Below, piece by piece: positions 53,065 to 63,328 of a stretch of DNA of 64,000 nucleotides. Position numbers and translations under genes: made by a program. The notes under the pieces are model-generated. The model had not been told where the DNA came from and made no database searches. It saw only the letters and a program-made list of their open reading frames with translations. How positions within the stretch are numbered: position 1 is the first letter of the stretch; every line of letters begins with the position of its first letter. Source of the stretch: a virus; IMG/VR virus record IMGVR_UViG_3300036715_002050, positions 32,001-96,000 of that record. One strand, 5' to 3'.

Positions 53065-53135
53065 ATCCCGCGTGACTGGTGACACACCCGGACGGTTCAT
53101 CGTTCGGTGGCTGGGTTCGATTCCCAGGCGGGACA
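53065..53135 (+). ncRNA. tRNA-like RNA
   Basis: TCCCGC/GCGGGA, T arm CTGGG-TTCGATT-CCCAG, extended arm instead of an anticodon loop. Confidence 0.55.
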
Positions 53136-53193
53136 TTGTTGTACAGGGTTTCTCCCTTTAACTACGGGCGGAAACGCCCGGCGGAGTTCTACC

Positions 53194-53796
53194 ATGGCTA
53201 TCAAGCAAATCCGTATCCCGACGCACAACGTTTGTGTGGTCAAGGTGTTGGGCGCTGGGGCTGGCAAGTCGCCGCGTACGTCCACGCGGTGCGCGGTGGT
53301 GCCGGACCCGTGCGAGTGGTTGCGGAAGGCGCACGCGGGCGACGTGGTGGACGCGGGGCAGCACGCCGCGCCTGGTGGCAAGGCTCGGGCGGAAGTCTAC
53401 CGGGTGACGGTGCTGGACCCGGAAGCGGGGGATTTGCCGCCCAACGCGCCGAAGGCGTACCGGGATGCCTCCTTCAAGGCGGCTGCACGGTCTGCGGCAC
53501 GCAAGGCTCGGGTGGCTGGGGCGATTGTTGCGCCCGTGCCGGTCGCGGCTGTCAAGCCCACGGTCACTGTTACCGTGGTGGTGGATGCGCCCAAGGCTTT
53601 CAAGGCGCCCCGTGTGTCCAAGGCTTTGTCGGGTGCCACACCCAAGGCTTTGCCTGCCGCCAAGGGTGAGCGTAACGAGCCCGTCGGTAAGACGGTTGAC
53701 GTGTGCGTCCAGTGCAAGGCCCCGATTGGGTTGGACCATGAGGGCTCGCCCAAGGTTGGAATGGGTGGCGTCTGTTTCACGTGCGGCGAAAAGTAA
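53194..53796 (+). CDS. Basic Ala/Val/Lys-rich protein with C-terminal Zn finger
   Basis: GGAG SD, CVQC...CFTC. Confidence 0.65.
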   Translation: MAIKQIRIPTHNVCVVKVLGAGAGKSPRTSTRCAVVPDPCEWLRKAHAGDVVDAGQHAAPGGKARAEVYRVTVLDPEAGDLPPNAPKAYRDASFKAAARSAARKARVAGAIVAPVPVAAVKPTVTVTVVVDAPKAFKAPRVSKALSGATPKALPAAKGERNEPVGKTVDVCVQCKAPIGLDHEGSPKVGMGGVCFTCGEK

Positions 53797-53874
53797 CAGC
53801 TTGTGCAGGGATGGGCCGCACACTCTAACGGGTTGCGGCTCGATTTGTTGTTCCCTTAACAAAAGGAAAGCAAA

Positions 53875-54981
53875 ATGTCCGTCGGGAATCCTTTTACGCG
53901 GCAGCTTGACACAAAGTTGTATGATGCGTCACAGCGGGTGGATTACATCCACGAAGACAAGTACGCTTCGCTTGGGGTTGCGGTGCTGGAAACGTGCCCG
54001 CTGGCTTTCTTGGCGCGGGAGGATCGTCCGCTGGATGCGGCACACTTGCCGGAAGCGTTGCGGCTGGATCAGGTCATGTCACGGCTGGCGTGGACCTGAC
54101 ACATGCGCAACAATCCTATCCGTAAGTGTGAAAAGTGTGGGAAACGTACATCAGCCCACATTCTTGTACCATCCGTCAACAAGTATGGCGACGATTCCAA
54201 GCGCGTCATGCACTGTTGCTTGAAGTGTCAAGCAGAAAAGCGGGATCTGGAAAAAGACCGCTGACGTACCGGCACGTTTCGCTTAACGGCGGGGCGTGCC
54301 AATTGTTTAACCAGCAAAGGATTTGTCATGCAAAAGTTTCCCAGCATCAAAGCGGTCCGCAAGGCGTTGGTCAAAATCAACAAAGACGTGGCCGGTTCTG
54401 CAAAAGAGGATGACGTGGAAGTGCGTCTGCAGGTGTTGGAGTCCGGGTATTGGGCTGTCCGGTTTGGGTCGGCGGATTACGACCAAGACCACCGTGGGTT
54501 GTGGGGCAGCGGGTACGTGCGCGGCGACCGGCGCAGGTTGAATTGCACGGACGTCGCCCGGGAGTTGCTTGACCAGTGCCGGGAGTCGTACGCGGAACAG
54601 CAAGCGTTCGCGGCTGCCGTGGCCCCGCAAGTGCGCGTCGACTTGGCTGCGCCGCGTTTCCCTGAAATTTGGTGACGTTTGGTAAAAAGCTTTTACAGCT
54701 TTACTGCGGCGTGTTTCTTAACGGAAACACGCCCGCGTTCGTTGTGGCGGTTAACCCCGAACGCGGAGCATAACATGCATACGTTCTATGTGATTGCGAT
54801 GTACTGCAGCATTCCGGCCCGTCCGATTGTGGTGCAGGCACGCAACGAAGTGCACGCGCTGCGCGTGGCAGAGCAGCGACGCGGTGCGGCATTCTTGGAC
54901 CACGGGCTGGTGCTGGTGTTCGCTGCGCCCGTGTTGACGGCGACGAACAAGGGCAACGGCGTGATGGAGTTGTCCAAGTAA
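53875..54981 (+). CDS. Four small early ORFs (53875-54099, 54103-54264, 54328-54675, 54775-54981)
   Basis: SD motifs, separated by TAAC-loop hairpins. Confidence 0.55.
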
Positions 54982-55026
54982 CAAAGGCGCTTCCCTATCC
55001 ACAAGGTAAGGAAGCGTGATCGTTGT

Positions 55027-55107
55027 GCCCGATTGGTGGAATGGTAGACACAGCAGACTCAAAATCTGCCGCCGCAAGGCATCCCGGTTCGAGTCCGGGA
55101 TCGGGCA
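55027..55107 (+). tRNA. tRNA-Leu(CAA)
   Basis: GCAGA-CTCAAAA-TCTGC, long variable arm. Confidence 0.93.
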
Positions 55108-55150
55108 TTGTTGTTTGTTGTACGACTTTCCCACCCACAGGAGCAATACC

Positions 55151-55396
55151 ATGGCTTCACACAACATCGTTGCCACGTCGCTGTTCGATGAGATCGAGCC
55201 CAAGCGTCACGAGATGACGCAGGCTGAGTACGACACGGGCGTGTCCGAAGGGTCGGGGATTTGCTTATCCTGCGGAAACATCGCAGACACGTGCGAGGAA
55301 GAGTCGACCGGGGAGGAGTGCGACACGTGCGGGGAGTACGACGTGGTCGCCTTCGAAACCGCGTTCGTGGACGACAAGATCGAGATCGAGGACTAA
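55151..55396 (+). CDS. Acidic Zn-ribbon protein
   Basis: GICLSCG...ECDTCGE. Confidence 0.65.
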   Translation: MASHNIVATSLFDEIEPKRHEMTQAEYDTGVSEGSGICLSCGNIADTCEEESTGEECDTCGEYDVVAFETAFVDDKIEIED

Positions 55397-55662
55397 AAAG
55401 CTTTGGGAAACGTAACGCCGCCTTACATTCCTTAGCGGGGGTGTAGGGCATTCGTCGTGGAGGAAGCATGACGTGGTCGCAAGACGGTCCGTTGACGTGA
55501 CGTAACTTTTTCTGAGAGCCCATCCAACGCACGAAAGGTGGATACAAATGCTGTTAAAAACGCGCTAGCCCGATCCGCGCGACCAAGTACGGGATAGGTT
55601 TGCTGGTTTTGCCTGACGTGAGATTGTCGCTTAGACTTTACTCATGCCACAAACCGGCGCGC

Positions 55663-61622: not shown

Positions 61623-61704
61623 GCCCGTGTGGTGGAATAGGTAGACACACAAGACTCAAAATCTTGCGTCCTCGGACATGGGGGTTCGATTCCCTCCACG
61701 GGCA
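61623..61704 (+). tRNA. tRNA-Leu(CAA)
   Basis: CAAGA-CTCAAAA-TCTTG. Confidence 0.93.
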
Positions 61705-61742
61705 TTTGTTGTACCCGCAAAAATTACCCACAGGAGACGCAC

Positions 61743-61988
61743 ATGAAAGTCGTACAGAAGCAAATCCCCGGAAGCGTCGGCAAGAGAATCGAAGAGTTCA
61801 AAGACGGAGACGTTATCCGGCACGCGAACAAAGTGCTCACCCAAACCCCCATTCTCAAGAGTTCCCGGACCGAAATGGGCGTGCACCAGCACTTCGGGGT
61901 GTGGCTGGATGACGGGCTGCTGTTTTCTGTCGCGACAATAACGGCGTATCGCTTCGTGCCGGTGATGGGCTCGTTTGTGGAAGAGTAA
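61743..61988 (+). CDS. Hypothetical protein
   Basis: CAGGAGACGCACATG leader. Confidence 0.6.
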   Translation: MKVVQKQIPGSVGKRIEEFKDGDVIRHANKVLTQTPILKSSRTEMGVHQHFGVWLDDGLLFSVATITAYRFVPVMGSFVEE

Positions 61989-62054
61989 CCCAATCCTTCC
62001 CGAAAATTTCAAGGTGGCGACCAAGTAGAGCCGGGAGGCTGGAACCGCCCGTGT

Positions 62055-62126
62055 GAAGGAAGCTCTTGGAGAGCAAGGGTCAGCGCACAACACCCCTTAG
62101 TGATGGTTCGATTCCATCCTTCTTTC
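62055..62126 (+). ncRNA. tRNA-like RNA without a 7-nt anticodon loop
   Basis: GAAGGAAG/CTTCTTTC, CTCT/AGAG, AAGGG/CCCTT, GATGG-TTCGATT-CCATC. Confidence 0.55.
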
Positions 62127-62162
62127 TTTGTTGTGCAAACAACCCTAGCAACGGAGCCGTCA

Positions 62163-62828
62163 ATGGGTAAGGTGTTGTCGTGGTCAGTCAATAACAAGAA
62201 GCTGGCTGGTTTGAAGACCCACAAGACCATCGGGTTTTCAATCCCAGCACACCAAAACTTCACGGACTCGGCGGGGGCGGTGCAAAACACCTGCCCTAGG
62301 GCGGGTGCGTGTGCTGGTGTGTGCTATGCCAAGCAAGGATTCTTCCTCATGCCCAACGTACGCGACGCCATGGTCAACAACTTGGAGTTGGTGCAATCGC
62401 CGCAGTTCGTGGCGGTGGCTACGTACGACTTGGAAAAGTACAAGCGATTGGGTTACAAAGTCGTGCGTGTGCATACTTCGGGCGACTTCTTCTCTCAAAG
62501 CTACTTGGAAGCGTGGTACGAGATCGCCCGCGCCCATCCTGACTTGCTGTTCTACGCCTACACCAAGCAATTCGCCAAGTTGGATCTGTGGACCACCAAG
62601 CCGGGAAACTTCCGGATCACGCAATCGGTGGGCGGCAAGGACGATTCCAAGATCGACTTGACCAAGTCTCACGCGCGGATCTTTGCGTCACACTACGCGC
62701 GTCGCAAGGCTGGGTACGGCAACGGAACCGACTCGGATTTGCTGGTGATTCGTGGCACCACCAAGGTCGGGCTGGTGTACCACGGCAACCGCAACCTGAC
62801 CGCATCCCAAAAGAAATACTTCAAGTAA
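62163..62828 (+). CDS. GP88-like (radical SAM-like) protein
   Basis: N.KL, TCP.AG.C...CYA, RVHTSGDF, FYAYTK, P.NF.I..S. Confidence 0.8.
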   Translation: MGKVLSWSVNNKKLAGLKTHKTIGFSIPAHQNFTDSAGAVQNTCPRAGACAGVCYAKQGFFLMPNVRDAMVNNLELVQSPQFVAVATYDLEKYKRLGYKVVRVHTSGDFFSQSYLEAWYEIARAHPDLLFYAYTKQFAKLDLWTTKPGNFRITQSVGGKDDSKIDLTKSHARIFASHYARRKAGYGNGTDSDLLVIRGTTKVGLVYHGNRNLTASQKKYFK

Positions 62829-62929
62829 ATTATTAACACACCTTACACCCAAGCCAAGCGCCACCGGGCGTCGTCTTCAATGACACTTGGCTTATTGCAG
62901 TAAAAGTAGCACAACAAAGGAGTACGCAC

Positions 62930-63328
62930 ATGGCTGACAAGAAGATCGTGAACACGCCGTCAGAGTTCTTGGAAACGGTCAAGCAGTTGTTGCTCACAAA
63001 GGGGTGGAACAAGGGGGCCTTCGCGGTCAATGCTGCAGGATTGGAGGTCAACGAGTGCTCCGACCTCGCCGCGCGCTTTTGCTTGCTCGGCGCAATGTCC
63101 CGCACGTTCGAAGACATGGACCCCACGGTGAGACATGCGCGGGGTCGTGTCTTGGAGCGGGACGCACAGGTCGCCTTGATGAAAGAGGTCCAAGACATGG
63201 GTGCCGCGGGCATCGCGGAATTCAACGACGACCCAGACACGGACTTGGAAGAAGTCGTGCAAGTGCTCGACCGAGTCATCAACAAGTTGGAACTGCAAGA
63301 AGCCAACTTCCAAATCACCGACTATTAA
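62930..63328 (+). CDS. DUF6197-like paralog 5
   Basis: GWNKG...FCLLGAM...FNDDPDT..EEVVQVLD. Confidence 0.65.
   Translation: MADKKIVNTPSEFLETVKQLLLTKGWNKGAFAVNAAGLEVNECSDLAARFCLLGAMSRTFEDMDPTVRHARGRVLERDAQVALMKEVQDMGAAGIAEFNDDPDTDLEEVVQVLDRVINKLELQEANFQITDY

Follow-up and report, generated by a model that had tools for sequence, protein, structure and literature searches.

A putative small-gene operon punctuated by tRNAs, tRNA-like folds, and hairpins in a distant relative of Myxococcus phage Mx1

We analyzed a 64,000-nucleotide (nt) stretch of viral DNA (the window), which corresponds to positions 32,001 to 96,000 of record IMGVR_UViG_3300036715_002050 and whose numbering is used below unless a genome position is stated. 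We found a strong predicted RNA structure in every uncoupled intergenic gap between 53.1 and 63.8 kb, in line with a sequence-only reading of this DNA, according to which a stable RNA element precedes nearly every gene. These elements are tRNAs, tRNA-like folds, or hairpins, and a T-rich motif (TTTGTTGT or a close variant) lies between most of them and the start of the downstream gene. The stretch from 52.0 to 65.8 kb carries some 27 short genes, with noncoding RNA structure taking up roughly a third of its length, and is probably one long, presumably early, unit transcribed by the host RNA polymerase from sigma-70-type boxes at 52.0 to 52.4 kb. We give about an even chance to a mechanism in which the RNA of this unit is cleaved at the tRNAs and tRNA-like folds, by RNase P of the host and by a 3' tRNA endonuclease, while hairpins cap the 3' ends. 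The single transcript, the acting enzymes, the positions of the cuts, and the early timing are all what we infer from the DNA.

The exact motif TTTGTTGT has 21 copies in the window, where 4.44 would be expected, and 0 of 100 shuffles reached 21; ten of its copies are on the + strand between 53844 and 62127. In the 23 uncoupled slots that precede the mapped genes (G1 to G27), TTTGTTGT is exact in 9, present with at most one mismatch in 14, and present with at most two in 18 or 19. It starts 26 to 42 nt before the ATG in 16 slots, and at G1 the variant ATTGTTGT stands 59 nt before the ATG. Evaluation of the 36 tRNAs that ARAGORN found in the record revealed that none encodes CCA and that 29 have a T at position +1 after their 3' end. 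TTGT lies within 8 nt of the tRNA end in 18/36 cases (random expectation, 3.2%) and GTTGT within 10 nt in 12/36 (random expectation, 1.3%), so the TGTTGT-type trailer previously noticed on many tRNAs of the main cluster is far more frequent than chance. In that cluster, the motif can form the entire 6- to 12-nt spacer between adjacent tRNAs, a location at which promoters or terminators would be useless or damaging. The motif is, first of all, the general 3' trailer of the CCA-less tRNAs of this phage, and on the simplest reading it would be a determinant for a 3' processing enzyme. RNase Z is stimulated by downstream uridines. The enzyme cuts directly after the discriminator of CCA-less tRNAs that are cotranscribed with genes, according to the available text of one report (PMC8549757). 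A Chi-like DNA signal was considered and rejected, as the copies of the motif keep to helix ends and start codons and are not scattered through coding DNA.

Beyond the motif itself, longer leaders recur in the region. Reading of the sequence and a repeat search both confirmed that a 24-nt string is identical after tRNA-Lys and tRNA-Glu (55735 and 56431; repeat family D4) and that an 18-nt string found at 57489 recurs at 57901 (family D3); repeat family D7 also belongs to these leader repeats. The start module described earlier as CAGGAG..GCACATG is also present, in the form CAGGAG-N-CGCACATG: in the 137-kb genome, the pattern AGGAG-N1-5-CACATG has seven matches, all on the + strand, and the region accounts for five of them. 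One module, CAGGAGACGCACATG (55769 to 55783, + strand), has an identical copy at 61731 to 61745 (families D2 and D11) and relatives at 57019, 57519, 57922, and 62918.

One promoter class is well defined in this genome: TTGAC(A/T/C)-N16-18-TAnnnT(G), which occurs at 40 + strand and 9 - strand sites. A slightly relaxed scan for this class returned 12 sites between 36 and 52.5 kb and 18 between 65.79 and 105.4 kb, versus 0 in the 13.3 kb between 52.5 and 65.79 kb, where the flanking densities predict 6 to 10; the next class promoter downstream is at 65795. A generic consensus scan detected no + strand sigma-70 site in 51.5 to 64 kb. Since the class is absent inside the region and present on both flanks, the region looks like one operon behind a cluster at 52.0 to 52.4 kb. 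The cluster, probably the promoters of the unit, consists of four TTGAC(T/C) -35-like candidate boxes (52005, 52150, 52235, and 52411; 52005 to 52446, + strand) in DNA free of open reading frames (ORFs), and an identical 29-nt repeat (family D10) comes after two of them, those at 52005 and 52150. Between the cluster and the first tRNA-like fold is a leader of about 620 nt (52446 to 53064, + strand), which contains no ORF with the signature of the region in G+C content at third codon positions (GC3). Within the region, many slots have less than 30 nt between the end of the helix and the Shine-Dalgarno sequence, too little for a standard promoter to fit outside the element. The earlier idea of a long punctuated transcript is thus supported in part and indirectly, by the absence of class promoters, the upstream TTGAC boxes, the embedded CCA-less tRNAs, the structure predicted to end just before each of these tRNAs, and the identity of the motif with a tRNA trailer.

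Two further observations concern promoters and the DNA next to them. The promoter class is absent from the - strand structural genes, which presumably use another signal. Just before the boxes, at 51395 to 51730, lies a GTGGG-type repeat array with a spacing of about 10 nt, a possible origin, genome end, or set of protein-binding sites.

Five tRNAs are embedded among the small genes, all on the + strand. They had been placed at 55027, 55663, 56360, 57419, and 61623 in the sequence-only reading, and ARAGORN together with Rfam showed them to be real: their scores against the Rfam tRNA family (RF00005) range from 56.5 to 64.4 bits, and all pass its gathering cut-off of 29 bits. The first, a tRNA-Leu(CAA) at 55026 to 55108, comes after a hairpin (54987 to 55017) that ends 8 to 9 nt upstream and has the trailer TTGTTGTTTGTTGT. 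The tRNA-Lys(UUU) (55663 to 55735) is followed by the 24-nt leader that it shares with the tRNA-Glu(UUC) (56360 to 56431), the latter with a hairpin at 56334 to 56355 ending 4 nt upstream. The tRNA-Gln(UUG) (57419 to 57489) carries the trailer TTTGTTAC, and the second tRNA-Leu(CAA) (61623 to 61704) carries TTTGTTGT and has a hairpin (61604 to 61619) that ends 3 nt before it. The Lys and Glu genes are 83% identical across the 40 nt from the T arm to the leader (family D1), and all five repeat anticodons of the main cluster, at 53 to 81% identity. The codons they read (UUG, AAA/G, GAA/G, and CAA/G) are more common in the rest of the genome than in the operon; elsewhere in the genome, TTG makes up 56% of Leu codons, and GAA and CAA are likewise major (73% and 74%). 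Early delivery of these tRNAs is a plausible second function. Because CCA-less tRNAs inside the unit must be cut out, the RNA of a single operon would necessarily be divided.

We also looked for tRNA-like folds by means of a geometric scan, in which a T arm, defined by a TTCRANN loop and no fewer than 4 of 5 pairs, had to precede a 7-nt strand able to pair with upstream sequence. It recovered every ARAGORN tRNA except the tRNA-Gly at 37833, plus three + strand loci at 53065, 56869, and 62056, in all of which the T-rich motif starts exactly one base past the 7-nt acceptor strand, as in true tRNAs. The fold at 53065 to 53136 has a T arm with 5/5 pairs and a GGTTCGATTCC-type loop, an acceptor with 6/7 pairs, and ATTGTTGT downstream. 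Its minimum-energy fold is a cloverleaf in which a 7-bp stem with a 6-nt loop replaces the anticodon arm (folding z score, -1.48), and it scores 18.4 bits against tRNA-Sec and 16 bits against mascRNA, both under the cut-off. The second fold is longer (56869 to 56991; 123 nt), with a large internal insert, an acceptor of 7/7 pairs, a T arm of 4/5 pairs with a TTCAACT loop, and TTTGTTGT after it (z = -2.47). The third (62056 to 62127) combines a GGTTCGATTCC-type T arm (5/5) with an acceptor of 7/7 pairs including a G-U, followed by TTTGTTGT; it is cloverleaf-like with a 14-nt "anticodon" loop (z = +0.37) and reaches 21.3 bits against tRNA-Sec, for which the cut-off is 47. The sequence-only reading had listed five such mimics. 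These three are convincing in their T-arm and acceptor geometry, and the remaining two, at 59075 and 60522, are marginal, so that the set appears to be a graded series and not five clean cases. The element at 59075 to 59123 is a mini fold closed by a 7-bp helix, with one hairpin and a 3-bp arm whose loop is TTCAAAT (z = -0.66). That at 60522 to 60580 has a 6-bp closing helix and a GCCG-TTCGAAT-CGGC arm (z = -0.60), an arm not formed in its minimum-energy fold.

A Y-shaped element at 62851 to 62893 (+ strand) resembles the mini fold at 59075, as does its sister at 63343 to 63386: each of the three has a closing stem, a single hairpin, and a 3-bp arm that ends in a TTCRAT loop (TTCAAT at 62851), and the two sisters have the string CGTCTTC(A/G)ATGACA in common. 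Directly before the marginal fold at 60522, positions 60488 to 60517 form an exact tandem duplication of a 15-nt unit across the start of the 20-codon mini-ORF G17. Outside the window, a 73-nt element with T-arm and acceptor geometry followed by ATTGTTTAAG is found on the minus strand (genome positions 130320 to 130420), and its sole Rfam match is a 10-bit fragment of the 3' end of tmRNA.

The hairpins of the region include a family of eight members with 12 to 14 pairs and predicted energies of -18 to -22 kcal/mol. The apex of all eight reads Y-Y-[UAAC or UAGC]-G-G, while stem ranks 3 to 12 vary, with 3 to 5 pair types at these ranks. The apex 8-mer has 43 copies in the genome, on both strands, only eight of which fold at -15 kcal/mol or better; these eight are all on the + strand and within 4.5 kb (53.8 to 58.3 kb). 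They are located at 53813 to 53841 (followed by GATTTGTTGT), 54271 to 54300, 54705 to 54737, 55420 to 55449 (the UAGC variant, inside a 266-nt ORF-free gap), 56025 to 56055, 56835 to 56866 (ending 2 to 3 nt before the second tRNA-like fold), 57383 to 57413 (ending 5 to 6 nt before tRNA-Gln), and 58299 to 58330. Variable stems around a fixed loop point to selection on an RNA hairpin and argue against recent copies of a mobile palindrome, and a REP- or MITE-like element was rejected on these grounds. UAAC is one of the UNAC/UMAC loops, which fold like GNRA loops. The apex may thus be no more than a stable cap, or it may serve in recognition; in the latter case, its invariant Y-Y-UAAC-G-G form would be a putative site bound by a dedicated factor of the phage or the host. 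Other + strand hairpins lie at 57870 to 57900, followed by ATTTGTTACACAGCTTTT (the 18-mer also found after tRNA-Gln), at 58661 to 58693, with a GAAA loop and followed by CTTTGTTGG, and at approximately 60408 to 60455, a long hairpin followed by TTTGTTGT.

These elements come in a set order. Predicted structure ends 0 to 9 nt upstream of all five tRNAs and of the fold at 56869; in front of the tRNAs at 55026, 56360, 57419, and 61623 and of the fold it is a discrete hairpin, ending 2 to 9 nt away, and in front of tRNA-Lys (55663) it is the closing stem of a larger predicted structure, ending 0 to 1 nt away. None of these discrete hairpins carries the full TTTGTTGT tract, and only that before 55026 has a partial one (TCGTTGT) after it; the full motif is present once per gap, past the last element. 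Where both are present, the order is always hairpin, tRNA, and T-rich leader. It had been proposed that tRNAs, mimics, and hairpins fill the same slot. This is right only in part, as hairpins and tRNAs hold different positions in a fixed order. This order, with the motif after the last element, is what processing of a common transcript predicts.

We propose that the five CCA-less tRNAs would be excised by host RNase P on their 5' side and, on their 3' side, by an endonuclease acting next to the discriminator, either of the RNase Z type or RNase E with subsequent trimming. The three well-formed tRNA-like folds, which lack an anticodon, probably recruit the same tRNA-processing enzymes. After such a cut, the upstream mRNA would end in a stem-loop, a barrier to 3' exonucleases, and the downstream mRNA would start at the U-rich leader (UUUGUUGU), about 30 to 40 nt before a strong, conserved Shine-Dalgarno and start module. 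In slots without a tRNA, the 13-bp UAAC-tetraloop hairpin or a longer hairpin would provide the stabilization and may also be a weak terminator. The real tRNAs would serve as useful decoding cargo as well. A bolder version, possible but in our judgment doubtful, is that the phage has turned host tRNA-maturation enzymes into an mRNA-processing system, in which anticodon-less folds are kept for their acceptor and T-arm halves and, together with tRNAs and tetraloop hairpins, split a 13-kb promoter-less operon into stable single-gene messages sharing a U-rich leader.

Several findings weigh against this proposal. None of the five mimics reaches any Rfam threshold, that of RF00005 included, and their anticodon arms are abnormal; for those at 56869, 59075, and 60522, the Rfam tRNA clan gave no match at E ≤ 10. 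Three of the five fold no better than shuffled sequences. The best identity of a mimic to a tRNA is 0.49 to 0.68, compared with a median of 0.57 and a 90th percentile of 0.64 between tRNAs, so the mimics are no closer to any one tRNA than different tRNAs are to each other, a result that neither proves a function nor dismisses an old decay. The proteins of the record include no RNase Z-like protein, Lactamase_B_2 domain, CCA-adding enzyme, or TROVE/Ro domain, and all processing activities must therefore come from the host. The TTGTTGT trailer is not common to the tRNAs of Mx1 (3/37). As for transcription, only the box at 52411 among the four fits the strict class (TTGACC-N17-TAGGGT), the promoter-free argument rests on a single class, so that a phage-specific promoter type would escape the scan, and a weaker candidate (TTGCAT-N17-TACGGT) was seen by eye before the DUF932 gene near 59139. 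The record (137,415 nt) is also incomplete, with a completeness rating of about 85%.

From their start contexts, we mapped 23 + strand genes at 53194 to 63967 and four more up to 65791. Pfam and PHROGs identified DUF6197 in five of them, DUF932 in one, and GP88 in one, and gave no match for the other mapped small genes. The five DUF6197 paralogues are 25 to 38% identical to one another, and each has its own RNA element upstream, of differing kinds. Among phage genes, the GP88 homologue of Streptomyces phage Gilgamesh was considered for comparison and set aside, since it lies among structural genes. Summed over the gaps, 3,371 of the 9,793 nt between 53137 and 62929 are noncoding (34%), and no ORF in the long gaps shows the GC3 signature seen in the genes of the region. 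The region (52000 to 64000) has a GC content of 0.57 to 0.61, compared with about 0.48 to 0.52 in the rest of the genome, and the GC3 of the operon is 0.79, compared with 0.56 in 20 large genes elsewhere. Two possible reasons for this foreign composition are that the region is adapted to a GC-rich host for the time before phage tRNAs have built up or that it was imported from elsewhere. Inside the operon, 60882 to 61622 (741 nt between G18 and tRNA-Leu; GC content, 0.51; no Rfam match; folding z only -1.21) has no ORF with the GC3 signature, and two further stretches, 55397 to 55662 and 56591 to 56834, are ORF free. G9 is a doubtful gene (37 amino acids [aa]; GC3, 0.65), and a reverse ORF at 56551 to 56778 (75 aa) has no Pfam match.

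To place the phage, we compared all ORFs of at least 50 aa with Myxococcus phage Mx1 (OR576727.2) by tblastn and found matches for 52 at E ≤ 1e-6. The ORFs shared with Mx1, about 50, are 23 to 59% identical to their counterparts, with 49% for the major capsid protein, 47% for the portal, and 45% for DnaE; the large baseplate proteins also matched, and the gene order of the replication and baseplate blocks is conserved. According to the available text of its genome announcement, Mx1 has 169.6 kb and 55.5% GC, and its host 68.8% GC (PMC10720576). Given the homology and the order of the blocks, the phage is a distant Mx1-like myovirus, and its host is probably GC rich. An ORF at genome positions 15615 to 16619 is 35% identical to an annotated sigma factor of Mx1.

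Closer relatives of the region did not emerge from the searches made. A megablast of 53 to 63 kb against 50,697 phage records gave matches of tRNA size only, and scans of IMG/VR with the DUF932 protein and the DnaB helicase found no relative; the best match of the DUF932 protein outside the record is 42% identical, and a metagenome scan yielded one 1.4-kb contig at 29% identity. Searches for a T arm followed by the trailer returned six single matches in IMG/VR, on contigs of 33 to 66% GC, and, with TTTGTTGT as the trailer, at least 120 single matches in genome contigs of very diverse taxa, which are uninformative on the host. Near-identical sequence with an unchanged arrangement was present in four metagenome DNA runs. 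Contig joints in these runs have short sides (24 to 45 nt) and mostly stem from tRNA cross-matches. Two joints in run X1, from 54534 to 56014 and from 56026 back to 54327, lie between G4 and G7/G8 and are a possible rearranged variant; each occurs in one contig with 30 to 45 nt on the shorter side, and nothing was concluded from them. In the main tRNA cluster, at least four further tRNAs score above the Rfam cut-off besides the 36 from ARAGORN. The four skipped by ARAGORN at default settings (41978 to 42058, 43589 to 43660, 44131 to 44211, and about 43733 to 43804) score 32 to 45 bits, with long inserts in two cases; at relaxed thresholds, the false calls of the program were too numerous for its output to be useful.

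The elements could also be read as a ladder of attenuators, in which each helix with its UUUGUUGU tract is a leaky intrinsic terminator that steps expression down, the tRNAs are early cargo, and the folds are decayed tRNA genes. In the tRNA-free slots, the geometry of an intrinsic terminator does fit, with the motif beginning 0 to 2 nt past a GC-rich helix and a tract of 6 U in 8, broken by a G, and a consensus terminator scan marks three of the units (54271, 55083, and 57876). That scan, however, returned 18 sites versus 15.0 ± 4.2 in shuffles and hence no enrichment. The same motif fills the spacers of the tightly packed main-cluster tRNAs, and the hairpins before tRNAs lack the full U-tract. 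About 20 units of helix and U-tract follow one another without a class promoter between them, and as modest termination at each would silence the distal half, we reason that they cannot be efficient terminators. The weakness of two of the five mimics is what decay would predict, and duplicate anticodons that fit codons used outside the operon suit a role as cargo, yet the mimics retain exactly the acceptor and T-arm parts. We regard attenuation as unlikely to be the main role of the elements.

Two other explanations take the repeats as signals or remnants in DNA. The identical 24-nt and 18-nt leaders beside unrelated genes and different tRNAs, the 40 nt of tRNA-Lys and tRNA-Glu at 83% identity, and the deviating GC and GC3 of the region would all suit recombination scars, that is, footprints or substrates of illegitimate or homologous exchange with no role in RNA; so would the three DUF6197 homologues of Mx1, which lie 2 to 4 nt apart with no elements between them. 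We nevertheless find this improbable. The DUF6197 paralogues of the present phage are old, and the elements upstream of them differ in kind, so the leaders did not simply travel with duplicated genes; strict strand polarity, a fixed distance to the ATG, and compensatory variation of the stems point to selection on RNA; and the four metagenome runs hold no well-supported rearranged variant. We judge it highly improbable that the units are terminator-promoter cassettes like the PeSLs of T4-like phages, in which TTTGTTGT(A) would belong to an unrecognized promoter, for instance as a -10-like element read by a phage-modified polymerase, with one start per gene. A PeSL combines a stem-loop with an early promoter, as the available text of PMC4122927 has it, and the constant 26 to 42 nt from motif to ATG would also fit a start site 7 to 10 nt downstream. 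One promoter per gene is moreover the rule in the small-gene array of Mx1 (about 19 of the 34 gaps of at least 40 nt, counted by eye). Against this, the motif has no A at position 2 of a -10 hexamer and no conserved upstream partner other than T-loops or hairpin loops, it is present between tRNAs 6 to 12 nt apart, the well-defined promoter class of the genome is absent from the region, and the sole sigma-like match, a weak one, maps to the structural part of the genome.

If processing at tRNAs and tRNA-like folds does occur, the region would be a bacterial-virus counterpart of mitochondrial tRNA punctuation, with tRNA-shaped signals where T7 has RNase III sites and Mx1 one promoter per gene, and would place a large block of probable host-takeover genes under posttranscriptional control. 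It would also assign a function to many odd tRNA-like sequences of large phage genomes, explain redundant tRNAs among early genes, and provide compact portable parts for operon building (an insulator cleavable by RNase P/Z, a leader, and a ribosome-binding site). The long-standing question of the roles of phage tRNA genes beyond decoding thereby becomes testable. New relative to the sequence-only reading are the identity of the motif as a tRNA trailer, its fixed distance to the ATG, the absence of the promoter class, the structure abutting the tRNAs, and the kinship with Mx1.

The early operon of T7 has three tandem promoters, and 3' hairpins stabilize its RNase III products; RNase III sites require a duplex of about 20 bp or more with an internal loop. 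In the available text of PMC4858673, T7 early RNA is cut at stem-loops into mono- and dicistronic mRNAs. The region may resemble this operon in having candidate promoter boxes at its start (four TTGAC boxes with one strict match, then 13.3 kb without a class promoter) and, presumably, a multi-kilobase polycistronic early RNA made by the host polymerase and cut at intercistronic stem-loops. Its stems, in contrast, have 12 to 14 bp under a tetraloop, less than a classical RNase III site needs, and its signals are tRNAs and tRNA-like folds, which would imply RNase P and a 3' tRNA endonuclease. In mitochondria, excision of intergenic tRNAs by RNase P and RNase Z frees mRNAs from a polycistronic transcript. 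Serial tRNAs between genes, with the flanking arrangement that this requires, are seen here too, but a true tRNA occupies only 5 of about 23 slots, the rest being folds or plain hairpins, and the setting is a bacterial virus with Shine-Dalgarno-led genes. Among the matches listed in a literature search for tRNA punctuation and phage, all concerned organelles.

The SAS/ESAS elements of Cluster K mycobacteriophages are, in the text of PMC3203893 available, Shine-Dalgarno motifs found in one orientation before the ATGs of unrelated, nonstructural genes, often after an inverted repeat; the 13-bp SAS consensus GGGATAGGAGCCC lies 3 to 7 bp before the start. The start module of the region is like them in position and AGGAG core only: it reads CAGGAG-N-CGCACATG and not GGGATAGGAGCCC, which places it outside SAS/ESAS. 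Upstream of it stands a tRNA, a tRNA-like fold, or a hairpin with a conserved loop, together with a T-rich trailer. PeSLs, proposed as points of genetic exchange in T4-like phages (PMC4122927, available text), are similarly short, repeated intergenic stem-loop modules between small, variable early genes. They contain an early promoter, whereas two scans found 0 + strand matches in 52.5 to 65.79 kb.

Mx1 is the closest point of comparison by descent. It too has many CCA-less tRNAs interleaved with genes, 31 of 37 with a T at +1, and five of its genes start 13 to 20 nt past a tRNA 3' end; in one gap of its early array, a tRNA-like fold made of a 7-bp closing helix and a canonical T arm comes before a T-rich tract and a Shine-Dalgarno sequence, and this fold has no Rfam tRNA match. 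These genes and this gap suggest that cotranscription of tRNAs and genes is a trait of the lineage. Mx1 differs in its small-gene array of more than 100 genes with 50- to 60-nt gaps, where most gaps carry a promoter, one per gene and PeSL-like: by eye, about 19 of the 34 gaps of at least 40 nt have TTGAC...GGATCT...TAGTAT, and some have a hairpin with a T-run. In the Mx1 record at 81 to 108 kb (- strand), the GGATCT in the promoter spacer is invariant, and in some cases a GGCCCTGGAG-type hairpin with a T-run precedes the promoter; the available text of the genome announcement makes no mention of intergenic architecture or of a GGATCT promoter (PMC10720576). Among 24 sites in about 167 kb of Mx1, only two, both loose, fold as UAAC/UAGC-apex hairpins, and its three DUF6197 homologues, 2 to 4 nt apart, have none of the elements that precede the paralogues here. 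Relative to Mx1, the promoter-free, element-rich operon thus appears to be special to this phage. With stems too short for RNase III, no promoter in the gaps, and a different start motif, we rate the region as a member of none of the systems compared (T7-type operons, organelle punctuation, SAS/ESAS, and PeSL) and as a putative variant of intercistronic RNA punctuation.

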